Below are positions 5,321 to 20,584 of a DNA stretch of 32,000 nucleotides, in pieces. Both the position numbers and the translations under genes were made by a program. Every line of letters begins with the position of its first letter. Position 1 is the first letter of the stretch. This stretch comes from Breznakia sp. PF5-3 (GTDB lineage Bacteria > Bacillota_I > Bacilli_A > Erysipelotrichales > Erysipelotrichaceae): positions 30,001 through 62,000 of the forward strand of contig NZ_JAQFIQ010000006.1 of NCBI RefSeq assembly GCF_029504745.1, given 5' to 3'. The notes under the pieces were generated by a model that was not told the DNA's origin, searched no databases, and was given only the letters and a program-made list of their open reading frames with translations.

Positions 5321-6247
5321 CTACTTTTGTTTTTTCAACGCTTCACTACCCTTAGTAATAAGTAATGGTTTTACTAGCCACTCCACATTGTCCCAATGTT
5401 CTTCTTTTGTAAGAATTTCAAATCCACTCTTGAAGAACGCAAGAAGGGCAGCTTCTGGATCTTCGTAATTCATCACATCTCTTAGAGTTATAAAATACTC
5501 ACTTTTTTCTTTACTATAAAATGCTTTATCTGGTTTGATATTTGTATTCGATAAATCTTTTGTTACAAATGGGTATGGTAATATAAAGAAACTTGGTTCA
5601 TCTATTGTATCATCACCTGGCCAAAAACCAAATTCAATCATCTGCTCATCAAAAGCCGTCTTTTCAATTACTCCATTACCTGGAAAAGGTGCCTCTTTAC
5701 CACTAAATAACACAGCAGAGATATCAAATGTTCCCCAGAAAAATGATGGTAAGATTTTCTTGCCTCGATATGCAGATACAAATTTCAATAATGCATTATG
5801 TGCAAATGTTGACATTTGAAAAAACGTCAATGCACATTGCGTATCGTACTCTCTTTTCACTTTATCATCTTCAAATGGTGTTCGAGTATTCATTTCCATT
5901 GGAACTGTACATATTTCCGTCTCACACATTACATCATTAAGCATGCGATTAAATAATGCATAATATTCACTGATTGATTTTCCAGTTTCGAAAGAAAACC
6001 CACTTGTTCGCCCATCGATACCACTGGCTACTACTTTCCCTTCTTTGATCATTAATGAGATGGAAAAACTCTTTTCACCATTCGGGATTAACCCCGTTGT
6101 AAATCCATCCGCATTTAATTGTAAAAGCGTATGATTCCATTCTGGTTGTGGTTCCATTCTCGTTAATTTTGCTTTCCCTAACATCTGACTTATCAAATGT
6201 AAGGTAAGCGCTGTATCTTTCCATTCACTATACTTTAACACATTCAT
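5321..6247 (-). CDS. DUF5996-family protein (function unknown)
   Basis: 308 aa. The N-terminus W.DT..TLHLISQMLGKAKL...PQPEWNH matches my recollection of the DUF5996 signature. No catalytic motif recognised. Confidence 0.5.
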   Translation of the reverse strand: MNVLKYSEWKDTALTLHLISQMLGKAKLTRMEPQPEWNHTLLQLNADGFTTGLIPNGEKSFSISLMIKEGKVVASGIDGRTSGFSFETGKSISEYYALFNRMLNDVMCETEICTVPMEMNTRTPFEDDKVKREYDTQCALTFFQMSTFAHNALLKFVSAYRGKKILPSFFWGTFDISAVLFSGKEAPFPGNGVIEKTAFDEQMIEFGFWPGDDTIDEPSFFILPYPFVTKDLSNTNIKPDKAFYSKEKSEYFITLRDVMNYEDPEAALLAFFKSGFEILTKEEHWDNVEWLVKPLLITKGSEALKKQK

Positions 6248-6336
6248 TTCAACATCTCCTTTTCAATAAATATCCTATTAGTGATATTATATCATTTCGG
6301 ATTCTATATGTAGATTAGAATGCATAAGATATTCAT

Positions 6337-7260
6337 TTATTTGCTTTTTATCCGTTGAATAATCAAAGGCAAAAATATCGCTGACAATAAAATACCTATG
6401 GATACTTGAGCTATCACTTCATCAACATACGGAGCGTATGCTTTATTTGCTGATGCTATGAGCAAAGGTGCAGATAGTGAAACTCCTCCTACACTACAAA
6501 TTGCAGTTGCCATAATTCCCTTTTGATGCAAGAGTTTAGTATCTATTAAATATAAAGGTATCCAGTTTACTATCATATAGACAATAAACAATATGATTCC
6601 TGACAGACTTGAATGTAATACAACATCTAAATGTATAGAACTTCCCAAACAGGCGCCTAAAAAAGGAAGTAAAACTTTATTCATACTTTTGGTAGCTACC
6701 CTAGATTGAGGAAATAGCTTTCCTATTACTAATCCAACAATCAAAGGTATAATGGTTGCTAGTATCATCTGATAATCAAACGATGCAGAACTATCCAAAC
6801 CCATAATCATTAATGGAAAAACAGGCAATACCATGACACTTAATAAAGCGAAATTTGCTTTATCTACATCATCACCATACTCTTCTGCAATTGCCATATA
6901 AACTCCAGGATTATAACTAGTAATAGCTACAACAAACGCTAATACAGAAATACCTAAGATACTATCTTTTACTAAAAAAATTACAATTGTAGATAGAATA
7001 ACATTTATCAAAAATCGCACAACAACTAAGATACCTCCACGTTTCATAGCCTTTATAAAAAGGGGAAGCTTCATCTGAATTCCTGTAACGACTAACATAA
7101 TACCAATAATTGTCATTGTCCCTGTACTTGAAAACACTGCAGTTGTTGGATTACCAATATCTAAAATATCTGTATAACTATTTAAAACTGCTGTTATCAG
7201 CATTGGAATCAATAATATCGCCCCAGGCATTTTCATTATTTTTTCTATTATTTTTCGCAT
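6337..7260 (-). CDS. kdgT: 2-keto-3-deoxygluconate permease family transporter
   Basis: 307 aa polytopic membrane protein. The N-terminus IEKIMKMPGAILLIPMLITAVLNS and the overall layout resemble KdgT (PF03812). Confidence 0.65.
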   Translation of the reverse strand: MRKIIEKIMKMPGAILLIPMLITAVLNSYTDILDIGNPTTAVFSSTGTMTIIGIMLVVTGIQMKLPLFIKAMKRGGILVVVRFLINVILSTIVIFLVKDSILGISVLAFVVAITSYNPGVYMAIAEEYGDDVDKANFALLSVMVLPVFPLMIMGLDSSASFDYQMILATIIPLIVGLVIGKLFPQSRVATKSMNKVLLPFLGACLGSSIHLDVVLHSSLSGIILFIVYMIVNWIPLYLIDTKLLHQKGIMATAICSVGGVSLSAPLLIASANKAYAPYVDEVIAQVSIGILLSAIFLPLIIQRIKSK

Positions 7261-7357
7261 ATCATCCTCACCATATCAACTATAACAATGATATAAGTAG
7301 AGGTATACTACCTTGCTCTTGCCATCACCAAAAATCGGCATTGTCGAAAAAAGGATA

Positions 7358-8605
7358 TTATAATACCCTTTTATACTGTTTATATTTTTGAAAAATAGAC
7401 ATTGGTGCGAAAAGCTTCAATGCAATCCCAGATCCATGATACTCCATATCTACTACTTTATACTGTTCATTCAAATAAGAAACTACATCTCCCATTGCAT
7501 ATGGAAACAAAAACTCTCCTATTTGATAATCAGCGAACAACGCTTCACGAAGAGCCTTTCTAAGTAGCTCAAGCCCTCTTTCTTGAAGTGAAGACACATA
7601 TACCTTATGATCTCCTGCACTTGCTTCTACTCCTTGTAAATCAATCTTATTATACACTTCAATTATTGGAATATCTTCAATTCCAATTTCTTTCAATGTT
7701 CTTATAGCAATATTCTTTTGTTCTTGGTAATAAGGATTGTTTAAATCAATAACATGCAACAAAACATCTGCTTCCTTTACTTCTTCTAAGGTAGAGCGAA
7801 ATGCTTGTATAAGATAATGTGGAAGTTTATCAACAAACCCAACTGTATCTGTAAGTAAACATTCTTCTTGATCTGATAGTTTCACTTTTCTAACTCGTGT
7901 TTCTAATGTCGCAAAAAGGATATCTTCAGCAAAAACCATTTTCTCATCATCTGCCACAAGCGCATTCATTAACGTTGACTTCCCTGCATTGGTATACCCA
8001 ACCAATGCTACCGTTTTTATCCCTGTTTGTTTACGTTTTTCCCGTTGTGTCTTTCGCTCTTGAACCATCTTTTTTAGTTCTTGTCTCTTCTTATGAATTT
8101 TCGCTTCCAACTGTCGTCGATCCAATTCCAGCTTCGTTTCTCCGCCTCCACGATTATAAAACCCAGCACTTCCCCCTTGCCTATTTAAATTCTCATAAGT
8201 CCCTACTAACCTTGGCAATTGATACTGAAGCATACTGATTTCTACTTGTAACTTCGCTTCTTTTGTTTGGGCACGACGAGCAAAAATATCTAAGATTAAC
8301 ATCGTACGATCCATAACCACACAAGGAATTATCTCATCTATGTTACGTAGCTGTGATGGCGATAATTCATCATTAAAAATAACAACATCGATATCCTCTG
8401 CCGCTTCTGCAATTTCTTCTAATTTTCCTTTTCCTACATAATAATGCTTTTGCATGCTTTCTAGTTTTTGAACAATTTGTTTGATTGGTTCAAACCCACA
8501 TGCATAAGCAAGATTTTCTAACTCTTCCATACTATATTCAAATGCTTTATCTTGAGGTGTTTCTACACCTACAAGGAGCACTTTTTCATTTTCAACTTCA
8601 CTCAT
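7358..8605 (-). CDS. hflX: GTPase HflX
   Basis: 415 aa. HflX N-domain (LDIFARRAQTKEAKLQVEISMLQYQLPRL, GGGETKLELDRR). G1 motif GYTNAGKST and G3 motif DTVGF. Confidence 0.92.
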   Translation of the reverse strand: MSEVENEKVLLVGVETPQDKAFEYSMEELENLAYACGFEPIKQIVQKLESMQKHYYVGKGKLEEIAEAAEDIDVVIFNDELSPSQLRNIDEIIPCVVMDRTMLILDIFARRAQTKEAKLQVEISMLQYQLPRLVGTYENLNRQGGSAGFYNRGGGETKLELDRRQLEAKIHKKRQELKKMVQERKTQREKRKQTGIKTVALVGYTNAGKSTLMNALVADDEKMVFAEDILFATLETRVRKVKLSDQEECLLTDTVGFVDKLPHYLIQAFRSTLEEVKEADVLLHVIDLNNPYYQEQKNIAIRTLKEIGIEDIPIIEVYNKIDLQGVEASAGDHKVYVSSLQERGLELLRKALREALFADYQIGEFLFPYAMGDVVSYLNEQYKVVDMEYHGSGIALKLFAPMSIFQKYKQYKRVL

Positions 8606-8832
8606 AAATACCTCCTATTTTCACGTCAAAAGTATAGGTACATATTACCTAAACAAATAAAAATAGTGAGACACCTTCAATTTTAAAATACAAAAAAAGA
8701 ATCTATCCTATTTATTTAATATATAAATGTACCTCATTATAATTTTCTATTTCTGATTCTTATATAATAGCGCATTTTAAAACCCCCAATCGCATTCACC
8801 TTACCATATGTCCATATAAAATACAACTATCA

Positions 8833-9654
8833 CTATTCTTTAATCTTTATTGATATCTTTAAAATATATTCCTCTGGTATTCGCGTTGAAATCTCATTTA
8901 ATAAATAATCCTCATATGCTTCTTTTTCTAATGTGTAGTTATGTTCTTTCGCATATTGAAACATTTTATTATAAAATTCTTGTCTAATCATATAATCACC
9001 ATATAAGTAACCTACAAGATACTTTCCTTTAGGTTTATATGTATTTGATTTTGGGATTCGATAATATAGTTGCATAGTTTCCTCTGTCCCATATGCTTTA
9101 TATCTCTCATAATTCACTACAATTCCCCAAGGAAATGCACATTCAAACCCTTCATCACTTGCATATTGATAAAAGCGTGAAACCATTTTAGACAAAGAAA
9201 TTTTCACACCATCCTCCAATCGCAAATCCGGACTCAAAAAAATAGGTTCCTTTTCATGATATTCAACTTGTATTGTTCCTACTTTTACCTTCTCTGCTTC
9301 CTTGGCCATCTCCATTTGCATATCCATCATATCTTTAATTTGCGTTAACTTGTCTATTTCTTCTTCAATTGTTTTTTTCTGTTTTGTAAATAAAGCAATC
9401 ATTTTTTCTGGCGTTCTACTATCCGTGAATTTTTTTATCTCTTTTAATGGCATTCCAATTTCTTTTAATGTCCATATCATATTCATTGTATATAACTGGC
9501 GATAGTAATAATAACGATAACCATTATCTAATACAATTTCAGGAGAAAAAACACCAATTGAATCATAATAGATTAAATTTTTCCTACTGATTCCTGATGC
9601 TCTAGCAAATTGTCCAATTGATAAATACACTTCTTTGTCTAATTTTCTTTCCAT
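8833..9654 (-). CDS. MerR-family transcriptional regulator with GyrI-like effector domain
   Basis: HTH LSIGQFARASGISRKNLIYYDSIGVFSP. Start moved to ATG 9654 (MERKLD) behind an AAGAGG RBS. The 15 upstream codons in the track have no RBS. Confidence 0.8.
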   Translation of the reverse strand: MERKLDKEVYLSIGQFARASGISRKNLIYYDSIGVFSPEIVLDNGYRYYYYRQLYTMNMIWTLKEIGMPLKEIKKFTDSRTPEKMIALFTKQKKTIEEEIDKLTQIKDMMDMQMEMAKEAEKVKVGTIQVEYHEKEPIFLSPDLRLEDGVKISLSKMVSRFYQYASDEGFECAFPWGIVVNYERYKAYGTEETMQLYYRIPKSNTYKPKGKYLVGYLYGDYMIRQEFYNKMFQYAKEHNYTLEKEAYEDYLLNEISTRIPEEYILKISIKIKE

Positions 9655-9688
9655 ATAATACCTCTTTTTCATTTTATTAAGATTAGGA

Positions 9689-9719
9689 TTGACTGTCAAG
9701 TCGCTATACAGTTTAGAAT
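9689..9719 (+). promoter_or_regulatory. MerR-type promoter with 19-bp spacer and internal dyad
   Basis: TTGACT (9689-9694), a 19 nt spacer containing ACTGT-N11-ACAGT, then TAGAAT (9714-9719). It faces the PRD-like gene and is divergent from the MerR gene. Confidence 0.6.
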
Positions 9720-9770
9720 AATAGTATAAAGAATTAACATATTTCTATAGTTTTGAAAGGAGGCCTTCTT

Positions 9771-10478
9771 ATGAAAGCAAAAACTATATCAACAAACGCA
9801 TTTAACAAACCATTATTTGAGAAAGACCTTGATTATGCATATCATACAAAAAAATACGTATATGATATAAAACAGCATTTCGGTAAAAATTTAAATAATG
9901 CAATTTATGTTACTTTATATCGATATCTATTGGATCTCTCACTGCATTCAAAAAAATCCCATGAAAATAGACGTTCTACTTTATGGTTAGTATCTACCTA
10001 TTTTAACGAAGAATTTTTAGTTGCTCAAACTATCATTCATGATTTAAACAAACACGTACACTGCTTAAATACATACCATAGTAGTGAAATTGCTTTATTG
10101 ATTATAGCTTCAAAATTTCATCTTTCGCCATCACAAATCTATATCATGATCGATATCATTTCAGAAATCACCAAAATAGTTAAATACTATTTTATGTATC
10201 CTATGGATATTCACTCACCTACTACCCATAGCTTTTTAGAACACATCAAATTACTGTCTTATCGTATCGTAATAAACAAATACGATAATAGCAATATTGT
10301 CGACATGTTAGATGTCTTCAAAGCAAAGTATATCCTTGCTTTTCAAGGTAGTGAAAAAGTAGCATCTTTTATCCAAAAAAAATATCGATTCACACTAACA
10401 AAAACAGAAAAGACTTTCTTAGCAATACACATTCAAACAATGATTTATAAATCTGAACACCAAAAAACCGACTTTTAG
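9771..10478 (+). CDS. PRD-domain-like protein lacking an RNA-binding CAT domain
   Basis: Start at ATG 9771 behind GAAAGGAGG. Helical repeats with PRD-like signatures (SSEIALLIIASKF, FLEHIKLLSYRIVINKYDN, EKTFLAIHIQTMI). The assignment is tentative. Confidence 0.4.
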   Translation: MKAKTISTNAFNKPLFEKDLDYAYHTKKYVYDIKQHFGKNLNNAIYVTLYRYLLDLSLHSKKSHENRRSTLWLVSTYFNEEFLVAQTIIHDLNKHVHCLNTYHSSEIALLIIASKFHLSPSQIYIMIDIISEITKIVKYYFMYPMDIHSPTTHSFLEHIKLLSYRIVINKYDNSNIVDMLDVFKAKYILAFQGSEKVASFIQKKYRFTLTKTEKTFLAIHIQTMIYKSEHQKTDF

Positions 10479-10491
10479 CTTTAAGTCGGTT
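10466..10491 (-). terminator. Terminator hairpin for the aldose-epimerase gene, overlapping the PRD gene stop
   Basis: AACCGACTT pairs with AAGTCGGTT. The U-run is on the minus-strand side (TTTTTTGG). Confidence 0.55.
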
Positions 10492-10503
10492 TCACTTTGT
10501 CTT

Positions 10504-11364
10504 TTATAAAACTTCAATACTATATGATGTAGTAAAGGTTTCACCAGCAGTTAAATTCATCATTCCTTCACGTTTAGCAAATGGAAGATCTACCTTTTCA
10601 AAATCACCATGTGAATACCAAGGTTCAATACAAACAAAAGGCGCTCCTTGCGTTGGACTCCATAAAGCTAGTAGTGGAAACTTATCCATGGTTACTTTCA
10701 CTTCATGCTTTGGCCCTTTCAAAGTCACATATGAACTTTTCATACCTTTATAAATAAGAGTTAAATATTTTTCAAACATTGCATAGTCCATAGGTATAGA
10801 TTTCAAACTTACTTCCGTATACGTATGAGGAACCTTTTTATTTGGGTCAAATATCAATTGTTGAAGTTTTTCCTCTTTTTCAAATACAATTTGATAATCT
10901 TCAAATTTTTCATCTTTTTCTAATGGACAGCGAAATCCTGGATGTAATCCAAAGGTAAAGGGCATCGTTACTTGATCATTATTCGTAATTGCATAATAAA
11001 TCTCAATTTTATTATCTACTAATTTATATGTAATCTTATATGTGAAATCAAATGGATATACTTTTTTTGTTTCTTGATTTGCATATAAGGCAAAAGAAAT
11101 CATCGTATCACTTTGCTCAACACATTGTAAATCTGCATAACGAATCAATCCATGATTTTTAAAGGTGTATGTTTTACCATCAACCTCATAAGTTCCATTA
11201 TATGTATTTCCGACAATTGGAAACAACGTTGGATTCTTACCAGACCAATATTTTTCATCTCCCTGCCACAGATATTCAATACCTGTTTCTTTATCCTTAA
11301 ACGATGTCATTTCACCACCTAAAGTGGTAAATTCAACTTCAAAACGATTATTAAATATTTTCAT
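10504..11364 (-). CDS. Aldose 1-epimerase family protein (LacX-like)
   Basis: 286 aa. Contains GGEMTSFKDKETGIEYLWQGDEKYWSGKNPTLFPIVGN and GLHPGF, with a beta-sandwich mutarotase pattern. Confidence 0.8.
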   Translation of the reverse strand: MKIFNNRFEVEFTTLGGEMTSFKDKETGIEYLWQGDEKYWSGKNPTLFPIVGNTYNGTYEVDGKTYTFKNHGLIRYADLQCVEQSDTMISFALYANQETKKVYPFDFTYKITYKLVDNKIEIYYAITNNDQVTMPFTFGLHPGFRCPLEKDEKFEDYQIVFEKEEKLQQLIFDPNKKVPHTYTEVSLKSIPMDYAMFEKYLTLIYKGMKSSYVTLKGPKHEVKVTMDKFPLLALWSPTQGAPFVCIEPWYSHGDFEKVDLPFAKREGMMNLTAGETFTTSYSIEVL

Positions 11365-11429
11365 ATTACTCCCTCTTTCTTCCTTTATTTTATCATAAAA
11401 TAACCATTTGTATCAGCAAAGTCATTCGC

Positions 11430-11458
11430 TTGACACATTACTTAAAAGAATATATCAT
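11430..11458 (+). promoter_or_regulatory. Sigma-A type promoter with no ORF downstream
   Basis: TTGACA (11430-11435), 17 nt spacer, TATCAT (11453-11458). Confidence 0.5.
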
Positions 11459-11462
11459 ATAA

Positions 11463-11545
11463 GTGTAAAGTGAAGTGTAAATATCCCTTTCCTATCTTCC
11501 TACTTCACTTTACACCCTAAAAAAAGGACGTAAGTCCTTTTTTTA
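11463..11545 (+). ncRNA. Candidate small RNA: 14-bp stem with CU-rich loop plus terminator
   Basis: GTGTAAAGTGAAGT (11463-11476) pairs perfectly with ACTTCACTTTACAC (11502-11515). The 25-nt loop reads GTAAATATCCCTTTCCTATCTTCCT. It is followed by AAGGAC-GTAA-GTCCTT and T7. No ORF. Confidence 0.35.
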
Positions 11546-11607
11546 GTTTCAACTACTATTCAAATGGTGTTCACAAAACCAACACACAAGCAAACTATAC
11601 TATAAGC

Positions 11608-11699
11608 AGTTAGATAAGTTTCTTTCTCTCTCCCTAAAATAATCTTTTCTTCTTATCTAACTTTTCCCTCAAAAAAAAGATTCAATTGAATCTTTTTTT
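11608..11699 (+). ncRNA. Second hairpin with CU-rich loop plus bidirectional terminator (candidate sRNA or 3' structure)
   Basis: AGTTAGATAAG (11608-11618) pairs with CTTATCTAACT (11652-11662). The loop reads TTTCTTTCTCTCTCCCTAAAATAATCTTTTCTT. It is followed by A8-AAGATTCAATTGAATCTT-T7 (11671-11699). Confidence 0.25.
11671..11699 (-). terminator. Terminator of the nuclease operon (bidirectional design)
   Basis: Palindrome AAGATTCAATTGAATCTT flanked by an A-run and a T-run, immediately after the stop at 11698-11700. Confidence 0.75.
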
Positions 11700-12285
11700 A
11701 TATTCTTTTCTTCAATTCCTTAGAAAGCCTATTTAGGCTTCTTTTTTTGCCTTTTTGCTTAAATAAAACAACAAGAATCATTAACACAATTATTCCTGCA
11801 ATAGTAATATAATACCATGGATCATCTTCTTCATCACTCCACATATTTAGTTTTTGCTTTTTCGCAACCGCTTCTTTTTCATAAAGCATATCTGTATAAG
11901 CATAATCACCATAAATGTATTTGACTTCTGCCAACCCTTCTTCTACCAATTCTTCCTGTAATAATTCCCCATCTACAAACACCCAAGCGAGAAGACGATC
12001 ATATTTATCTCGTTTATTACTTGGTTCATACTCCAAACTAATTGCTTCTGCTGCTTCTAATTTATCGCAAACATAAGCACTGGATTCTTTACCATAACGC
12101 TCCTTTTTTTTCGTATATTCAGGTGCATTAATCGCTAGAAAACGTACTTTTTCTTCTTTTCCATTCACAAGAAAAGCAGCTGTATCGCCATCAATACACC
12201 TACTTAATGAAACAGTTTCTTGATCATTTGCTTGAATATTGGTTGTCATCATCAACAAACAACAAATACATATTAATTTTCTCAT
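11698..12285 (-). CDS. Thermonuclease (staphylococcal nuclease, SNase) family protein with signal peptide and C-terminal TM anchor
   Basis: Contains RCIDGDTAAFLVNGKEEKVRFLAINAPE and DKYDRLLAWVF. N-terminal signal MRKLICICCLLMMTTNIQA. C-terminal segment YYITIAGIIVLMILVVLF followed by KQKGKKR. Confidence 0.85.
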   Translation of the reverse strand: MRKLICICCLLMMTTNIQANDQETVSLSRCIDGDTAAFLVNGKEEKVRFLAINAPEYTKKKERYGKESSAYVCDKLEAAEAISLEYEPSNKRDKYDRLLAWVFVDGELLQEELVEEGLAEVKYIYGDYAYTDMLYEKEAVAKKQKLNMWSDEEDDPWYYITIAGIIVLMILVVLFKQKGKKRSLNRLSKELKKRI

Positions 12286-12857
12286 TTTAACTTCTCAAAC
12301 AGCTCCTCATAAATCTTTTGTAGTTCTTCTTGTTCTTTATCCGTCATTTTTCTTTCAGTAGCATCATGATCATCCAATGTCCCCATATGGTGTGCAACAA
12401 TTTTACCTTCTTTGATTATAATAACCTCCGGCACATATAAATATGTTTCACCATCATTTTCATCTAATCCATATGCTTTATCCAACAATTTAGTTGTCTC
12501 TTTTAGCCACTCAGGATGTGCTTCATTTGCTTCACTTTTTTTATTTACATAATAGATATTAGTTTCTTGTGCTTTGGCTACCTCATTCATGATTGGAACT
12601 GCTTCAATACACCAAGGGCATGTTGCATATCCAAAATAAATAATTCCTGAAAACTCTTTATCTTTTATAAACGTGTTTGCTTCATCAAACGTAACCTCTA
12701 AAAAGACATGATCACCATCCATGAAATTATCATATCCTTCCATATCTGCTTTCTCACAATCTACTCCACAAACATTCGTATTTTCTTTTTCTTTATTGTC
12801 ATTACACCCTGCTAGCAATAAACAAATGCCAAACAATACAATTCCTATTTTTTTCAT
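12282..12857 (-). CDS. Thioredoxin-fold lipoprotein (CPWC active site)
   Basis: Lipobox LLLAGC. Redox motif YATCPWC. Its stop overlaps the nuclease start (ATGA). Confidence 0.75.
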   Translation of the reverse strand: MKKIGIVLFGICLLLAGCNDNKEKENTNVCGVDCEKADMEGYDNFMDGDHVFLEVTFDEANTFIKDKEFSGIIYFGYATCPWCIEAVPIMNEVAKAQETNIYYVNKKSEANEAHPEWLKETTKLLDKAYGLDENDGETYLYVPEVIIIKEGKIVAHHMGTLDDHDATERKMTDKEQEELQKIYEELFEKLK

Positions 12858-14029
12858 TTTAAATCTCCTGAATCATTTACAATTACTTTAATATCTTTTT
12901 TCTTTAATCGATTATCAATATACTCGCCAAATAATTCATATGCCAAGGCAGTACATGGTACAGCTAATAACATACCAGCTACACCAAATAAATCACCTAA
13001 AACGAAGATTGATAAAAGAACCCAAATTCCTGGCAAGCCAATACTTTTCCCAACAATCTTTGGATATATGATTTGACTTTCTAAATTCGACAGAATTTGG
13101 AAAATCACAATAAACCATATCCCTTGCAATGGATCAAAAGCAAAAATCAAAACAAAATCTATCAACATTGCAAATATTGGACCAAAAACAGGAACGATAC
13201 TACATACCGTAATCGTCGTTGCCAATAATTCTGGGAGTGGGAAGTCAAGAATGATAAATACAATATAGAACATAATTCCCTTGATTGCACAATCAACCAA
13301 TTGACCACCAACAAATTTTGTAAACATGTAATTCGCTTTTTCACCAATTCGGAAAATCTTATGACTATGTTTTAAATTAAAGCAAGCCAAAATCACCTTA
13401 CGAATTTGATAAATAAATTTTTCTTTTCCTGCCAATAAATAAATGCTCAAACAAAAAGCTAAGAACCATTGGAAGAAAGCATTCGTAAACTCCATCGCAT
13501 TCCTTATCACACCAGCTGTAATATCCCCAAAGAATGTAATACCTTTTTCAAATATTTGCTGCCATGACATATCTTGTAATTCCTTTATATATGCAATATC
13601 TTGCAAACGGAAATTAATATTAAAATCATCAAATATTTTATTCACAGAACGAATCCACGAATTTACAAGTTGTGGGAATCCTTTGAATACTTCAACCATA
13701 CTTTCTGAAACCTTTGGAATAATAATCATCACCAATAAATATAAAAGAATTGTCGCAAAAATTAAGGTCAACAAAATAGAAATTGTTCGAATGAACCGTA
13801 AGAGAAATTTATTATTTCGCAATATTTTATTTAACCCCTGTTCAATTCTTCGCATTGGGATATTCAATACAAATGCAATTGCGATTGCATAAAAAAGTGG
13901 TTTTAAAAGCCCTAAGATAAGCATTGTATAATCAATGATTACTTTATAATTCAACATTACGGCTAATAAAACAATAACATATGTACAAACAAAAATTATA
14001 TTTTTATTTTCACTTAAAAATTTTTTCAT
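12854..14029 (-). CDS. AI-2E family transporter (PerM/YhhT-like)
   Basis: 391 aa with ~8 TM segments. C-terminal GLPGIWVLLSIFVLGDLFGVAGMLLAVP is typical of the family. 4-nt overlap with the next gene. Confidence 0.8.
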   Translation of the reverse strand: MKKFLSENKNIIFVCTYVIVLLAVMLNYKVIIDYTMLILGLLKPLFYAIAIAFVLNIPMRRIEQGLNKILRNNKFLLRFIRTISILLTLIFATILLYLLVMIIIPKVSESMVEVFKGFPQLVNSWIRSVNKIFDDFNINFRLQDIAYIKELQDMSWQQIFEKGITFFGDITAGVIRNAMEFTNAFFQWFLAFCLSIYLLAGKEKFIYQIRKVILACFNLKHSHKIFRIGEKANYMFTKFVGGQLVDCAIKGIMFYIVFIILDFPLPELLATTITVCSIVPVFGPIFAMLIDFVLIFAFDPLQGIWFIVIFQILSNLESQIIYPKIVGKSIGLPGIWVLLSIFVLGDLFGVAGMLLAVPCTALAYELFGEYIDNRLKKKDIKVIVNDSGDLK

Positions 14030-15862: not shown

Positions 15863-15938
15863 GGAGGTTTAGCTCAGTTGGGAGAGCATCTGCCTTACAA
15901 GCAGAGGGTCAGCGGTTCGAGCCCGTTAACCTCCACCA
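15863..15938 (+). tRNA. tRNA-Val (anticodon TAC), CCA encoded
   Basis: Cloverleaf folded by hand. Acceptor GGAGGTT/AACCTCC, anticodon loop CTTACAA, T-loop TTCGAGC. Confidence 0.95.
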
Positions 15939-15942
15939 TTAT

Positions 15943-16019
<77 letters not shown>

Positions 16020-16029
16020 TTTTTTTTGT

Positions 16030-16113
16030 GGGGGGGTAGCGAAGTGGCTAAACGCGGCTGACTGTAACTCAGTTCCTTAGGGTTCGACAGTTCGAATCTG
16101 TCCCCCCCCACCA
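16030..16113 (+). tRNA. tRNA-Tyr (anticodon GTA), long variable arm, CCA encoded
   Basis: Acceptor G7/C7, anticodon loop CTGTAAC, extra arm, T-loop TTCGAAT. Confidence 0.9.
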
Positions 16114-16122
16114 TTACTTTCT

Positions 16123-16198
16123 TGGGGTATAGCCAAGCGGTAAGGCACCAGACTTTGACTCTGGCATTTCACTGGTTCGAATCCAGTTACCCCAGCCA
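16123..16198 (+). tRNA. tRNA-Gln (anticodon TTG), CCA encoded
   Basis: Acceptor TGGGGTA/TACCCCA. Anticodon stem CCAGA/TCTGG with loop CTTTGAC. Confidence 0.95.
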
Positions 16199-16211
16199 AT
16201 TTCTTATATGT

Positions 16212-16287
16212 GACCCGTTAGCTCAGATGGTAGAGCATTTGACTTTTAATCAAAGGGTCGGGCGTTCGAATCGCCCACGGGTCACCA
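16212..16287 (+). tRNA. tRNA-Lys (anticodon TTT), CCA encoded
   Basis: Acceptor GACCCGT/ACGGGTC, anticodon loop CTTTTAA. Confidence 0.95.
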
Positions 16288-16300
16288 TTTATTTATTTTT

Positions 16301-16374
16301 GCGGGTGTAGTTTAATGGTAGAACTTCAGCCTTCCAAGCTGACTACGTGAGTTCGATTCTCATCACCCGCTCCA
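16301..16374 (+). tRNA. tRNA-Gly (anticodon TCC), CCA encoded
   Basis: Acceptor GCGGGTG/CACCCGC, anticodon loop CTTCCAA. Confidence 0.95.
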
Positions 16375-16388
16375 AATGTAAAACAAAA

Positions 16389-16418
16389 ACTTAACACTCA
16401 AATGTGTTAAGTTTTTTT
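16389..16418 (+). terminator. Terminator of the tRNA cluster
   Basis: ACTTAACAC pairs with GTGTTAAGT, followed by T7. Confidence 0.8.
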
Positions 16419-16591
16419 ATGCTTTTTAGAATACTTAATGATGACATTTATGATCATCACCATGATGGTTACATGGAAACATCCGTGCTATATATATTAA
16501 TGAATGAGATAAAAGCTTTTGCACTACTTCATCTGTTTTTCCTTGCACACTTCTATATATGGCTATATTGTTTTCCATTAATATTTCTCTT
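16400..16591. repeat. Direct repeat copy A (~190 bp), homologous to 19814-20002
   Basis: Aligned by eye: about 15 substitutions plus a 1-nt and a 2-nt indel, roughly 90% identity. It covers the right arm of the tRNA terminator and the 3' end of a NifX-like ORF. Confidence 0.85.
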
Positions 16592-16640
16592 AATATGATC
16601 AAGAAATCATAAACATCTCCTATTCTTATATTATTCAATG
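16435..16640 (-). pseudogene. Truncated remnant of a NifX/NifB-family gene (paralogue of 19849-20208)
   Basis: The C-terminus REILMENNIAIYRSVQGKTDEVVQKLLSHSLIY...CNHHGDDHKCHH matches REILKENNIAIYGSVQGKVDEVVQKFLSHSLIY...CNHHGDDHKCHH of the full-length gene. The N-terminal ~70 codons are missing. Upstream TCTCCT...ATTCAATGCTTA resembles the RBS/intergenic sequence at 20210-20245, implying an internal deletion. Confidence 0.8.
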
Positions 16641-16648
16641 CTTAAAAC

Positions 16649-17458
16649 TTACTTTTCGAATTTTTGTAATTCTTCATAAGCGATATCAATATAATAATAT
16701 CCACCATTTGCTGAAGAATAACCATTATATACCAAGAGTAAAAGTGAATCTTTTTTAAAATAAGAATATACAGGTTGATCTACATCATTATAATTCTTAT
16801 AAAATGCTGTATCTGCATTTTTTAAAGCATACAAAAGATTATCCCCATACTCATTCATAAAGTCCTCTCTTGCTCCACTCTCCTTAGTTAGAAATCTTGA
16901 TTTGTCAAAAACAAAGTCAACTAACTCTTGATCTATATTATAGACATCTTTCAAACACAACCTTTCACCTGTGGCTAAATTATAATTCAAACTAAATGTA
17001 GGATGCCCTGAAACATTTCTATCGACTATTTCTACTGCTGTAAATTTTATACTGAAAATCTTTCCACGCATATTCCATTCATAATCTATACCAAGAGAAA
17101 TATTATCTTTTTTATAAAGTTCATTTCCATTTATATCAGCTAAAAGTAACATTTCTATTTCATTATTAATTTTATTCTCAATATCTTTATTGTGTAATTG
17201 ATTAATACTAGGGTATTTTATGTTAATTGTAGGTTCATCTGTATATATACTCAAAATTTCATTAACATAAATGACCTCATTAATACCAATATCATTATAA
17301 GCATCAGAATATAAAATATGATCACTATTTTTTTGCGTGTTTTTATCTTTTATAACTGGATTATTTTCCGTAGTTTCTTTTTTATTAGTATTAACACACC
17401 CCACAAAAAAACAACAAGACATAAGTATTAAAATTATAATCTTAATATTTTCTTTCAT
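16649..17458 (-). CDS. Lipoprotein with DUF4163/DUF3298-like (RsiV-like) ectodomain; predicted immunity protein for the upstream toxin
   Basis: Start set at ATG 17458 (MKENIKIIILILMSCCFFVGC, lipobox-like FVGC) behind AAGAGGA, 17 nt after the toxin stop. Motifs: INIKYPSINQLHNKDIENKINNEIE (DUF4163-like), SGHPTFSLNYNLATGERLCLKDVY and LLLLVYNGYSSANGGYYYIDIAYEEL (DUF3298-like). Confidence 0.6.
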   Translation of the reverse strand: MKENIKIIILILMSCCFFVGCVNTNKKETTENNPVIKDKNTQKNSDHILYSDAYNDIGINEVIYVNEILSIYTDEPTINIKYPSINQLHNKDIENKINNEIEMLLLADINGNELYKKDNISLGIDYEWNMRGKIFSIKFTAVEIVDRNVSGHPTFSLNYNLATGERLCLKDVYNIDQELVDFVFDKSRFLTKESGAREDFMNEYGDNLLYALKNADTAFYKNYNDVDQPVYSYFKKDSLLLLVYNGYSSANGGYYYIDIAYEELQKFEK

Positions 17459-17474: not shown

Positions 17475-18863
17475 TTAATCAAAATATTTCGATGCTTCAT
17501 CATAGTATTGTTTTCTATCATTTAGAGATTCTTCATTATCCCATGGGTTGATTAATGCCAGTACATCCTCAACACTACCACCAGTGTCAATAACTGCATT
17601 AATTTCACGGTATTTCCAAAACCATCCTGCTGATTGCCATGGATAATTATCTGCGACATACTGATAGCCTTGATTTACTATTTCTGGATCATCTATTTGA
17701 TATATTTCTTTTAAATATGCTGCAAAGGCTTTATAATTACAACGTCCGGTTAATTGGAGCCCTCCAGCACCTCGATATTTGCTACCATCACCTGGTTGTG
17801 TATTACCTAATTGTCCGCCACTAAATGTACCTGGTTCATATTTATCAAAAGCATTTGAATTATTACCATCCCACTCTACCATATCTCTTCCTCCACCAGT
17901 TTCTTTTGTAGCTTGCGCTATAAAATGCTTTATCCGCTCAGGAGTAGTAATATTATAATCTTCTAACGCTTTATTTAAATCATAAAGAAATTCTTCAGTT
18001 ACAACATCTTTTCCATCTCTTGTCTTATTCCATCCCAATAATGTCAATTGCCAACAATCTACATAAATTGTGTAATCTACAAAACCTTGTTTGCTCTTTG
18101 TCAATTTATGTAATTCCTCTATAATTTCCTTTTTTCGTATCTCATCAGCATTCCAATATTCATCTACTAGTTTATCCTGTTTCGTTTGGATACTTTCCAA
18201 AAATCTTTTTTTAAGCACTTCAAATATTTTTCCTATTTCTAAACCTTTATCCTTTTCTTTTTTCTTACTTGTTTTTGATATGATATTTCCAACCCAACTC
18301 ATCTGCTTGATATCTATTTTAAAGCTTCCACTTTTTTCATCCCATGTACCTTTTGATAACATATTCATTCCTTGCTTCACCTGATTGTAATAATATCTAG
18401 CTTCATCATAATATCCCTCTGCTTCAATATCAAAATTATACAACCTCTCTATCATATCTTGCAAATCCCTTGTTTCATATAACTCCATATCCATCCAAGG
18501 CTGTATACCTATCTCATATTCCATTATTTCTCTTAATCTATTAAACCTTTCAATTCCTTCATATAAATAATCAGTATCAATATACGCTGTATGCGACCCA
18601 TCTACTTGATTATGAAATTCATTCATATATCGACTATTTGCATGGATTGTAGAAGAACACATATTTTGTATTCCTTCTAACAATGGAAGCCATACCATCT
18701 GAAAATATTCTTTTCCATTATCATATGCTTTTCCTTGTAATTGCTCCTCATTAATCAACCCTATGATTTCTTGTTTTAATTCTTCAATATCCTCTATTTT
18801 ATTTTGCATATTGTGATTCATACCTTCCATCATAATATGCATCTCATTTGCATCAATAATCAT
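17475..18863 (-). CDS. LXG-domain polymorphic toxin (T7SSb substrate class) with C-terminal glycoside hydrolase family 19 / COG3179 chitinase-lysozyme-like domain
   Basis: N-terminal LXG signature: EEQLQGKAYDNGKEYFQMVWLPLLEG ... NEFHNQVDGSHTAYIDTDYL. C-terminal GH19 signature: ERIKHFIAQATKETGGG ... LGNTQPGDGSKYRGAGGLQLTGRCNY ... SAGWFW. Strong RBS GAGGGAGAAGGAA. The start overlaps the upstream gene by 11 nt. Confidence 0.8.
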   Translation of the reverse strand: MIIDANEMHIMMEGMNHNMQNKIEDIEELKQEIIGLINEEQLQGKAYDNGKEYFQMVWLPLLEGIQNMCSSTIHANSRYMNEFHNQVDGSHTAYIDTDYLYEGIERFNRLREIMEYEIGIQPWMDMELYETRDLQDMIERLYNFDIEAEGYYDEARYYYNQVKQGMNMLSKGTWDEKSGSFKIDIKQMSWVGNIISKTSKKKEKDKGLEIGKIFEVLKKRFLESIQTKQDKLVDEYWNADEIRKKEIIEELHKLTKSKQGFVDYTIYVDCWQLTLLGWNKTRDGKDVVTEEFLYDLNKALEDYNITTPERIKHFIAQATKETGGGRDMVEWDGNNSNAFDKYEPGTFSGGQLGNTQPGDGSKYRGAGGLQLTGRCNYKAFAAYLKEIYQIDDPEIVNQGYQYVADNYPWQSAGWFWKYREINAVIDTGGSVEDVLALINPWDNEESLNDRKQYYDEASKYFD

Positions 18864-19200
18864 TTCCTTCTCCCTCTATTCTTTTCTTCCTTTGCCAATA
18901 CACTGCTTCTTCTTCCTGTTCATTTAATACTCTATTCATTTTTTTATACGCTTCTTTTTCAAACTCTATATATTCATTGTTTTTAATTAATACATTTTTA
19001 TACAGCTCTTCCTTTTTACCATAAAAGGTATTGGCTCTATCTCCTTGATACCCTTCAAATACTAAAGCTAATACATTATTCGTTTCTTGTGTATGACAAT
19101 ATATTGCTTCTCCTGTAGATTCTATTTGCTTAAACTTTTGTTTGTTCCGATATCTTTTAATTTCTATATCCTCTAATTGTTTATTAAATTCATTATTCAT
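18853..19200 (-). CDS. Small helical protein, Lap2-like (DUF3958-like) LXG-associated export helper candidate
   Basis: 115 aa, charged and helical, immediately upstream of the LXG gene and translationally overlapped with it. Assigned by size and position. No diagnostic motif recognised. Confidence 0.4.
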   Translation of the reverse strand: MNNEFNKQLEDIEIKRYRNKQKFKQIESTGEAIYCHTQETNNVLALVFEGYQGDRANTFYGKKEELYKNVLIKNNEYIEFEKEAYKKMNRVLNEQEEEAVYWQRKKRIEGEGNDY

Positions 19201-19202
19201 AG

Positions 19203-19478
19203 TTATTTTACTTCTCGTATTGTCTTTGCCATCTTTTTATCAACATTGTCAAATGATTTTGCCATAATTAAGAAATAATCAACATCCTTTTGCAGATGAG
19301 ATTCCAAATCAGATAATATAGAAAAAGTATCATTTTCACATGATACTGATTATAATATTGATTGTAGAGTACTTTTAGATACTTGTATTGAATTGTTTAT
19401 TTTACATACTTTAGATTGAATCTTATGTAATATTGTTACTCTCGTGTTGACAATATCTAAACTAGATTTTAACATCAT
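19203..19478 (-). pseudogene. Lap1-like (DUF3130 / SACOL2603-type WXG100-like) gene interrupted by an in-frame TAA
   Basis: Manual translation from ATG 19478 behind AAGGAAG: MMLKSSLDIVNTRVTILHKIQSKVCKINNSIQVSKSTLQSIL*SVSCENDTFSILSDLESHLQKDVDYFLIMAKSFDNVDKKMAKTIREVK*. The internal stop is at 19350-19352. An FxxxD motif (FDNVD) lies near the C-terminus. The final stop overlaps the next start (TAACTATG). Confidence 0.5.
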
Positions 19479-19583
19479 ATTTTCACTTCCTTTATACACT
19501 TATGACGTAACCATTTAAATTAGCGTTCCCCTTCCATTTGAAAATTCAATCAATTCCTTGTAGTTCTTTCAGATATTATTTCT

Positions 19584-19620
19584 AAAAAAACAAAGGAGTA
19601 CAAATACACCTTTGTTTTTT
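19584..19620. terminator. Bidirectional terminator hairpin at the truncation point of the methyltransferase fragment
   Basis: A7-ACAAAGG-(12 nt)-CCTTTGT-T6. Confidence 0.6.
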
Positions 19621-19819
19621 GAGCAGCTAATAAACTAATCGTTCTAATACCACAATATGTATCAACAATTACTTCATCACCTTTTAATTCTAATAAAGAC
19701 AATGCTTTATCATATAGTTTTTCACATTGTTCATGATTGATTTGGTAAAATGACTTCGGTGATATTATCTTAAAAGTTAAGCCACAAAGTGTATCATAGA
19801 AATATCCTTTTCCAAATAT
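19610..19819 (-). pseudogene. Internal fragment (~70 codons) of a 23S rRNA (uracil-5)-methyltransferase RlmCD/RumA-type gene
   Basis: IFGKGYFYDTLCGLTFKIISPKSFYQINHEQCEKLYDKALSLLELKGDEVIVDTYCGIRTISLLAAQKTK matches the ...FxISPxSFFQxN...DxYCGxGTI (SAM motif I) region. The TRAM/Fe-S N-terminus and the catalytic C-terminus are both missing. Confidence 0.75.
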
Positions 19820-20002
19820 GTTAAGTTTTTTTATACTTTTTAGAATATTTAATGATGACATTTATGATCATCACCATGATGGTTACATGAAGCATCTGTG
19901 CTATATATTAATGAATGAGATAAAAACTTTTGCACTACTTCATCCACTTTTCCTTGCACACTTCCATATATAGCAATATTATTTTCTTTTAATATTTCTC
20001 TT
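19814..20002. repeat. Direct repeat copy B (~190 bp), homologous to 16400-16591
   Basis: See copy A. Copy B retains only the loop and right arm of the tRNA terminator hairpin, so it is the derived junction. Confidence 0.85.
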
Positions 20003-20208
20003 GCTCCTGCACCTATGCCACCACAGATAAGTGCATCAATGCCTTGATCTTTCAAAAACTTCCCTAAACTTCCATGCCCTTGGCCATTTGTACCAATACA
20101 TTCACTATCAACAATTTTATTATCTCTTATCTCAAAGATTTTAAACTGTGTAGTCTTTCCAAAGTGTTGAAACACATTTCCTTCATCATAAGTAACTGCT
20201 AATTTCAT
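19849..20208 (-). CDS. NifB/NifX-family (dinitrogenase FeMo-cofactor-binding domain, PF02579-like) protein with Cys/His-rich tail
   Basis: 119 aa. Contains MKLAVTYDEGNVFQHFGKTTQFKIFEI and ALICGGIGAGAREIL, with the tail CNHHGDDHKCHH. Confidence 0.75.
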   Translation of the reverse strand: MKLAVTYDEGNVFQHFGKTTQFKIFEIRDNKIVDSECIGTNGQGHGSLGKFLKDQGIDALICGGIGAGAREILKENNIAIYGSVQGKVDEVVQKFLSHSLIYSTDASCNHHGDDHKCHH

Positions 20209-20242
20209 TTTCTTTTCTCCTTTATTATTTCTAATTCAATGC

Positions 20243-20584
20243 TTATTCCTTACTACATGTTCCCCTCTTGCAACATTTCTTTTTATGATTACATTCCCCA
20301 CAGATTTTATACTCTCCTCCTTCTATGAGCAATGTATCTCCATGTACTAAGAAGGAAGCTATTTTCTTTCTACTCCTTGCATAAATTGCTTGGACTGTTG
20401 TACGTGCTACTCCCATCTGTTTTGAACATTCCTGTTGATTTAGACCTTCTAAGTCAATCAATCGTATTACCTCATATTCATCAACACTTAAAATAATTTT
20501 ATTTATATCGTTTCTTGTTTGAGAATGAAAACAGTTATGTTTTGGTAAATGGCACACGTTTCTTCCTTTTTGTGGTCTTGGCAA
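20243..20584 (-). CDS. DUF134 (UPF0251) predicted DNA-binding protein with C-terminal Cys cluster
   Basis: TTG start behind AAGAGGTGA gives the family-typical MPRPQKGRNV. HTH-like LNQQECSKQMGVARTTVQAIYARSRKKIA. C-terminus CGECNHKKKCCKRGTC. Confidence 0.75.
   Translation of the reverse strand: MPRPQKGRNVCHLPKHNCFHSQTRNDINKIILSVDEYEVIRLIDLEGLNQQECSKQMGVARTTVQAIYARSRKKIASFLVHGDTLLIEGGEYKICGECNHKKKCCKRGTCSKE

Follow-up and report, generated by a model that had tools for sequence, protein, structure and literature searches.

The locus analyzed here raises the question of what a lipoprotein, encoded immediately behind an LXG polymorphic toxin, does for the bacterium that produces both. The two genes lie on the minus strand of a 32,000-nucleotide (nt) stretch of DNA from Breznakia sp. 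PF5-3, which was analyzed as a whole and is hereafter called the window; Breznakia is an insect-gut genus and belongs to the Erysipelotrichaceae, in the Bacillota. The toxin ends in a domain of glycoside hydrolase family 19 (GH19), and the lipoprotein is identical to a database protein (P0001) recorded as "hypothetical protein M2475_000508 [Breznakia sp. PF5-3]". An initial annotation, made from the sequence and its open reading frames (ORFs), had suggested that the lipoprotein is the immunity protein of the toxin and that its mature part reuses the extracellular half of the lysozyme-binding anti-sigma factor RsiV, that is, the domain pair DUF4163 and DUF3298. As set out below, the lipoprotein is probably the cognate immunity protein of the LXG-GH19 toxin, a role that is read from its gene neighborhood, and the proposed fold is confirmed by family profiles and by a structure model.

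An exhaustive HMMER search against 1.84 billion representatives (E <= 1e-3) returned 63 relatives of the lipoprotein, mostly lipoproteins of 240-280 amino acids (aa), and a family alignment and profile (A1) were built from 52 of them. The second-best match (E 9e-30) is a 2307-aa cyanobacterial protein made of 11 tandem PdaC/DUF4163-type modules, encoded at 6001-12924 of its locus (L108) with a PipX gene nearby and no toxin gene adjacent. The position of the lipoprotein gene directly downstream of the toxin was upheld: both genes are on the same strand, 16 nt separate the toxin stop codon from the lipoprotein start, and a ribosome-binding site of its own (AAGAGGA) lies 6-7 nt 5' of the ATG. A longer in-frame ORF starting at 17521 was rejected, as it would overlap the end of the toxin gene and has no AAGAGGA site. 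The identity of the product as a lipoprotein also stands. Its N-terminus (MKENIKIIILILMSCCFFVGC) has a Lys-containing N-region, then an uncharged hydrophobic stretch and the lipobox FFVG-C21, which was read directly and which we take to satisfy the PROSITE PS51257 rule; in the majority of the 52 homologues a Cys occupies this position. The region that follows is gap-rich and poorly conserved in A1. In the AlphaFold2 model, residues 26-30 and 43-51 have a predicted local distance difference test score (pLDDT) of less than 50, and a short strand is predicted for residues 35-39; these features are consistent with a flexible tether that links the folded domains to the lipid anchor.

Since the single lipoprotein sequence falls below the Pfam cut-offs, either the family profile or a structure model is needed to reach significance. 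The direct scan with the two Pfam models, proposed initially as a check, gave a sub-threshold match to PF13739 (PdaC, formerly DUF4163; 20.1 bits, E 0.0014, against a gathering score of 29.1) at residues 77-118, which include the DUF4163 motif INIKYPSINQLHNKDIENKINNEIE, and no match to PF11738 (DUF3298) at E <= 1. The NCBIfam RsiV model (NF052658) scored 8.9 bits (E 0.87; equivalog cut-off 250 bits), the best Protein Data Bank (PDB) sequence match of the lipoprotein alone was RsiV (5jen) at E 0.13, and a word-index homologue search found only the lipoprotein itself or, with a five-member alignment as query, only the two Breznakia paralogues. At the level of the family, PdaC was matched by 42 of the 52 homologues (E <= 0.01; best 1.9e-16) and DUF3298 by only two. 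The family profile aligned over both domains with 3cyg_A (E 7e-11) and with RsiV 5jen_A (E 3.4e-9; profile 36-252 on chain 46-263), and hhalign likewise spanned both domains of P0023 (Prob 99%, E 6e-18), which itself matches both PdaC and DUF3298 strongly in Pfam, DUF3298 being called at its residues 148-239, within the A1 alignment. The AlphaFold2 model of the lipoprotein (pLDDT 83.3; predicted template modeling score, pTM, 0.77) consists of a signal-peptide helix, the tether and a folded two-domain body. In a Foldseek search with this model the six best PDB matches (E 1e-7 to 1.5e-5) were two chains of 3cyg, two chains of the RsiV-lysozyme complex 5jen, and the DUF3298 structures 3s5t (E 1.7e-6) and 4e72 (E 1.5e-5); the next was MPT64, and SpPgdA was just a weak match. 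Profiles and model together confirm that the lipoprotein has the two-domain DUF4163 plus DUF3298 fold of the RsiV ectodomain. The suggested likeness to RsiV is thus borne out, and so are the two domain names, with a reservation in each case: DUF4163 holds by fold and profile homology although the protein itself does not reach the gathering score, and DUF3298 holds for the C-terminal half by profile, hhalign and the 3s5t/4e72 fold although Pfam gives no hit on the protein itself.

The toxin was analyzed by sequence and by predicted structure. Its residues 284-457 match the GH19-type endolysin PWe2 (9ms7) at E 8e-14 in a PDB sequence search, in which 4ok7, 9eoi and plant or Streptomyces GH19 chitinases were also found. 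The AlphaFold2 model of residues 251-462 has a pLDDT of 86.9 and a pTM of 0.84, and all of its 49 best PDB fold matches share the GH19 fold, be they chitinases, endolysins of the GH19 type or other proteins. Among 35 toxin homologues E321 (in KETGG) is invariant and E330 (in MVEWD) is at least 90% conserved, and the two residues align with the Glu of the HE(S/T)G motif and with the downstream Glu of PWe2. The Pfam GH19 family (PF00182) gave no match on the toxin itself at E <= 1, although homologues do carry it. These sequence and model data establish the toxin as an LXG protein with an intact GH19 glycosidase domain.

The case for a functional link between the two proteins is built on gene neighborhoods, for which the DNA was read around 11 homologues of the lipoprotein with usable context. 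A GH19 toxin domain or its remnant lies directly upstream on the same strand in five of the 11, and in every toxin-linked case the toxin either overlaps the lipoprotein start or ends at most 41 nt away. The toxin upstream of P0004 (L002) is 41% identical to that of the window over 271 aa, including the linker before GH19, and overlaps the lipoprotein start. Upstream of P0008 (L009), across a 41-nt gap, lies the gene for a 434-aa protein that shares 37% identity with the toxin of the window over 198 aa at its C-terminus, and this pair is found within an island that also holds a YD-shell phospholipase-like toxin and an Ank-repeat gene. In P0045 (L109-L110, Oscillospiraceae bacterium CM) the upstream gene encodes a 579-aa protein that combines the end of an RHS core with GH19 (43% over 143 aa; 28-nt gap) and whose mid region, as read from the sequence, resembles a peptidoglycan-binding domain. 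P0033 (L111) is preceded by a GH19 fragment (40% over 88 aa) that overlaps its start, and P0005 (L003-L005) by a 42-aa stub of the toxin C-terminus (45% identical) located 19 nt upstream. P0005 is a second copy of the lipoprotein in the same Breznakia genome (M2475_002094; 27% identical; L003/L004 6001-6789), its stub lies at L003/L004 5859-5981, near the parAB/gidB region, and it is a classic orphan immunity gene. The toxin-lipoprotein pair recurs in other Bacillota, and its GH19 domain is carried by three N-terminal scaffolds, namely an LXG-like linker, an RHS core and an N-terminus of no recognized type. Because the same C-terminal domain occurs on differing delivery modules and the same lipoprotein family always lies downstream, the arrangement has the signature of polymorphic toxin-immunity pairs. 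The co-occurrence check, which might have refuted the initial annotation, speaks in its favor: GH19 toxins accompany the family in L002, L009, L109/L110 and L111 and, as a stub, in L003-L005. It should be kept in mind that the pairing evidence amounts to five additional pairs only. In a rough neighbor-joining tree the lipoprotein of the window groups with P0003, P0004 and P0005, and P0008 and P0045 pair elsewhere; the pairing is therefore either older than the clade of the window protein or arose more than once. The multi-toxin island of L009 (1557-12354) also contains two genes for YkzU-family (PF27189) proteins of 616-622 aa, each followed by a gene for a protein of ~215 aa.

As a control, we considered 80 genome loci from many phyla, obtained by a scan with the toxin domain, and 15 metagenome loci, obtained by a scan for toxin-specific motifs, all with related GH19 domains: none of the 95 carries a gene of the lipoprotein family. 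These GH19 proteins are mostly endolysin-like, being short or fused to LysM or peptidoglycan-binding domains, with holin neighbors where examined. A Bacillaceae lipoprotein encoded near GH19 lysins was considered as a family member and rejected, since its weak score came from the signal peptide and a low-complexity linker, and it represents a different family. It is found, on the minus strand in all cases, at L013 5605-6405, L014 5616-6437, L015 5568-6260 and L019 5556-6338 (Terribacillus, B. spizizenii TU-B-10, Oceanobacillus and one uncultured bacterium), convergent to a holin and a multi-LysM GH19 lysin, and consists of an acidic low-complexity linker and a C-terminal domain of ~120 aa (YSAxQIEYARVW...GNGDGTINVY) that belongs to no known family. 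This protein could be a different GH19 inhibitor.

Table 1. Coordinates of the toxin-lipoprotein cassette and its borders in the window
Feature	Position	Strand	Basis
Lipoprotein gene, 269 aa + stop; predicted immunity protein of the GH19 toxin	16649..17458	-	ORF; M2475_000508, Breznakia sp. PF5-3
Signal peptide and lipobox, residues 1-21 (FFVG-C21)	17396..17458	-	Sequence reading; helix 5-17 in model
Tether from anchor to folded domains, residues 22-57; mostly low confidence, probably flexible	17288..17395	-	Model and alignment
DUF4163/PdaC-like N-terminal domain, ~residues 58-160, with IKYPS motif and VSGHPT loop	16979..17287	-	PF13739, profile, hhalign, fold search
Divergent DUF3298-like C-terminal domain, ~residues 161-269, with YSSANGG loop, aligned with RsiV loop Y255-G263	16652..16978	-	Profile, hhalign, fold search; no direct Pfam hit
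LXG polymorphic toxin gene, 462 aa, WP_277489388.1	17475..18863	-	Named "T7SS effector LXG polymorphic toxin" / "putative chitinase" by NCBI (T7SS, type VII secretion system)
LXG domain, toxin residues 3-116	18516..18857	-	PF04740, E 4.4e-17, 63.1 bits (cut-off 26.5)
GH19-fold peptidoglycan/chitin glycosidase toxin domain, residues 284-462	17478..18014	-	PDB sequence matches, AlphaFold2, fold search
Catalytic Glu E321, codon	17901-17903	-	Conservation and PWe2 alignment
Catalytic Glu E330, codon	17874-17876	-	Conservation and PWe2 alignment
115-aa helical protein, 11-nt overlap with toxin start; probable Lap2-like export partner	18853..19200	-	Weak full-length DUF3958 match, E 0.032; position
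Small helical ORF, ~91 codons, one in-frame TAA (19350-19499 + 19203-19307)	19203..19478	-	Sequence reading
Direct repeat (~193 bp), left copy: terminator and 3' end of NifX-like gene; bounds cassette	16399..16591		
Direct repeat, right copy: inside and after intact NifX-like gene 19849-20208	19813..20005		
NifX 3' remnant	16435-16638		Sequence

How such a lipoprotein would protect its producer can be proposed from the nature of both partners. The toxin would leave the cell through a type VIIb secretion system and would cut the glycan strands of the peptidoglycan on the outer side of the membrane; because this target is extracytoplasmic, an extracytoplasmic immunity protein is called for. With its lipobox and tether the lipoprotein should sit in the compartment in which the toxin acts, the extracytoplasmic substrate being deduced from the GH19 domain. 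Held by its lipid anchor at the exterior of the producer's membrane, it would capture incoming or self-secreted toxin 1:1 and occlude the substrate cleft, both binding and interface being part of the proposal. The precedent is RsiV, whose loops around E163-T171 and Y255-Y261 engage C-type lysozyme at its active-site pocket, so that the enzyme is almost completely inhibited when the two are present at a 1:1 molar ratio (PMC5014341). With RsiV numbered as chain index of 5jen plus 14, which reproduces the residue numbers in PMC5014341, the loops E163-T171 and about Y255-Y261 fall on GAAHP and vPHAlGdH, the two motifs that the family conserves best. By profile alignment their counterparts in the lipoprotein of the window are VSGHPT (149-154) and YSSANGG (247-253), which, lying at the lysozyme-plugging positions of RsiV, would be the most likely contacts. 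Both loops are highly variable among the toxin-linked homologues, which fits determinants of cognate specificity.

Several observations weigh against this picture, and each is taken up here with the explanation that it favors. The one that survives best, although we regard it as unlikely, retains the lipoprotein as an immunity protein but not as an RsiV-like block of the active site: it would bind the toxin elsewhere, sequester it at the membrane, or shield peptidoglycan or the lipid II-linked glycan. The lysozyme contacts of RsiV, S169, P259 and Y261, align with G151, S248 and A250 and are not conserved, and the interface is not simply transferable, because the ligand of RsiV is a GH22 C-type lysozyme, whose fold differs from that of GH19. 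Charge complementarity between toxin and lipoprotein was considered and not seen; both are acidic (isoelectric points of 4.5 for the toxin domain and 4.7 for the mature lipoprotein), and an RsiV-style complementarity is therefore not expected. The module also occurs in a peptidoglycan-modifying enzyme, as the family name PdaC indicates, in addition to the weak fold match to SpPgdA. On the other hand, the known inhibitors of wall glycosidases generally place loops in the cleft, as do Ivy, MliC and RsiV (PMC5014341) and EatI (PMC13444075), and the toxin-linked proteins differ most in the two loops that are aligned to the active-site-binding loops of RsiV.

Less probable still is that the cassette is a decaying relic, in which export of the toxin has been lost and the lipoprotein serves no present function. 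The 115-aa gene, the LXG toxin and the lipoprotein follow one another on one strand, with an 11-nt overlap and then the 16-nt gap, a spacing that implies co-transcription of the lipoprotein with the toxin. The 115-aa protein is a probable LXG-associated (Lap2-like) export partner, inferred from its position and from the DUF3958 match. The small ORF next to it is possibly, though uncertainly, a decayed second Lap-like partner; it matched no Lap or T7SS-related family in Pfam, with just chance-level unrelated matches (E at least 0.008), and it carries an in-frame stop. No T7SS core gene was found among the window ORFs scanned with Pfam, which are a part of all its ORFs, and together with the stop in the putative partner this means that the LXG cassette may not be fully functional. 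The two copies of the ~193-bp repeat (~92% identical) each contain a terminator together with the final ~52 codons of the NifX-like gene, an extra 21-bp repeat is located at 16633-16653 and 20234-20254, and the repeat copies enclose the whole LXG cassette together with a truncated methyltransferase-like ORF (19550-19861). This arrangement looks like an insertion or recombination scar that would mark the cassette as acquired, and because the cassette is flanked by a duplicated gene end and by gene fragments, the methyltransferase-like ORF and the NifX remnant, its current activity is not guaranteed. Nevertheless, toxin, 115-aa partner and lipoprotein are full-length, with catalytic residues and start sites intact, and near-identical toxins (same 90%-identity cluster) have been retained in several Breznakia assemblies, which speaks against mere decay.

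Elsewhere in the window, a cluster of six tRNA genes (15863-16374) adjoins the repeat-bounded cassette, and two adjoining genes for secreted proteins, overlapping by 4 nt, are found on the minus strand at 11698-12857: the product of one (11698-12285) is homologous to staphylococcal nuclease and has a signal peptide as well as a hydrophobic helix at its C-terminus, and that of the other (12282-12857) is a thioredoxin-like lipoprotein.

The remaining difficulty concerns the family at large. Several of the toxin-lipoprotein pairs lie on short metagenomic contigs, and five of the 11 homologues with readable context (P0003, P0007, P0009, P0010 and P0018) have no adjoining toxin, from which it follows that the family as a whole has other roles too. 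P0003 is flanked by insertion sequence elements, P0007 lies beside GntR-ABC genes, P0010 follows pyrE, and P0018 (L112 4001-4843) is found directly after ftsZ-spoIIGA-sigE-sigG, a position that hints at a sporulation-related role for some of the toxin-free members. Such housekeeping and sporulation contexts, like the insect-gut habitat of Breznakia, favor the weakest of the explanations, in which the lipoprotein is a general PdaC/DUF4163 envelope protein that, for example, controls wall enzymes of the cell itself or gives protection from the lysozyme of the insect host, and its adjacency to the toxin is coincidental. RsiV itself does handle host lysozyme (PMC5014341), but this account is improbable given that five independent homologues are tied to GH19 toxin domains or a stub on three toxin scaffolds, that copies of a gene end delimit the cassette to which the gene belongs, and that its 16-nt spacing implies co-transcription with the toxin. 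Tentatively, and well short of the confidence that we place in the cognate immunity role, the DUF4163 plus DUF3298 module may be seen as a general, evolvable inhibitor scaffold for cell-wall glycosidases, with RsiV and the GH19-immunity lipoproteins as two of its branches. The toxin-free members, e.g., the sporulation-linked lipoproteins, the N-terminal domain of PdaC and the 11-module cyanobacterial protein, would then likewise bind peptidoglycan-cleaving enzymes.

Returning to the proposed immunity protein, its likeness to RsiV of B. subtilis (PDB 5JEN) lies in the two-domain DUF4163 plus DUF3298 fold on the outer face of the membrane. Unlike RsiV, it has no sigma-binding domain or transmembrane helix and is lipid-anchored via its signal peptide, there is no sigV nearby, its neighbors being the LXG toxin and the NifX-gene remnant, and its presumed ligand is a bacterial GH19 toxin instead of the C-type (GH22) lysozyme of RsiV, with different contact residues. 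Judged by these features of sequence and locus, the lipoprotein is not an RsiV, and by analogy it most likely works like a polymorphic-toxin immunity protein and like RsiV in its inhibitor function. Among other toxin partners and inhibitors, TipC, the partner of TelC, is surface-exposed and has a different fold, the fold of XAC2610 is unrelated, as is the immunity protein of TseP, and MliC is, like the protein studied here, a lipoprotein. XAC2610 is absent among the PDB fold matches of the lipoprotein model, and none of the Ivy, MliC and Pli families appeared in the sequence or fold searches made with the lipoprotein.

Among LXG toxins, a parallel in terms of compartment is the lipid II phosphatase TelC of Streptococcus intermedius, which is described as acting in an "inner wall zone" outside the membrane (PMC6193138); TelC-TipC is likewise an LXG system of type VIIb directed at a cell-wall pathway outside the membrane, and the chemistry of the toxin differs. 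The same logic of a GH19 effector with a lipoprotein inhibitor is found in Xanthomonas citri, where the peptidoglycan hydrolase X-Tfe XAC2609 is an interbacterial effector of the type IV secretion system X-T4SS with the cognate inhibitor X-Tfi XAC2610 (PMC10933484), although that system is Gram-negative and its delivery is of type IV. In the mycobacterial EatA-EatI system, an ESX-4 toxin of family GH183 is encoded together with helical partners, and the lipoprotein encoded downstream of it inserts a loop by which, at a molar ratio of ~1:1, the toxin is completely inhibited (PMC13444075). This is the same layout of a type VII wall glycosidase and a lipoprotein, but its target is arabinan and EatI is a small beta-sandwich, not a DUF4163/DUF3298 protein. 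The muramidase inhibitors MliC, PliC and Ivy also insert loops into the active site, and MliC is membrane-bound (PMC5014341), but these are Gram-negative periplasmic proteins of unrelated folds that are aimed at animal lysozymes. Finally, TseP (PDB 8xcl), a dual-function antibacterial effector of a type VI secretion system, was the fold match of rank 21 for the toxin-domain model and comes from a Gram-negative system with type VI delivery.

The initial annotation regarded this as a new type of toxin-immunity pairing. That is consistent with the searched literature, although GH19 effectors with lipoprotein inhibitors of other folds are known (PMC10933484). A full-text literature search found no paper tying DUF3298 or DUF4163 to toxin immunity, or RsiV to LXG, and co-mentions of LXG and GH19 were limited to Xanthomonas papers; in a 2012 survey of polymorphic toxins, RsiV goes unmentioned and no toxin of chitinase or GH19 type is listed. 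We rate the pair as an instance of a known logic, a secreted wall hydrolase with a lipoprotein inhibitor, carried out with a new immunity fold and a new type of LXG toxin. If the proposed role is correct, part of the large DUF4163/DUF3298 family would gain a function that can be tested, and the one known activity of the fold, the blocking of C-type lysozyme by RsiV, would be extended to a differently folded enzyme. Lipoproteins of this kind could also explain resistance to the GH19 endolysins that are under development as antibacterials. A new family of immunity proteins and a GH19 cell-wall toxin, neither of which was found in the searched literature, would join the type VII/LXG repertoire of Gram-positive bacteria, and an ancestral inhibitor common to lysozyme sensing and interbacterial immunity would be suggested.

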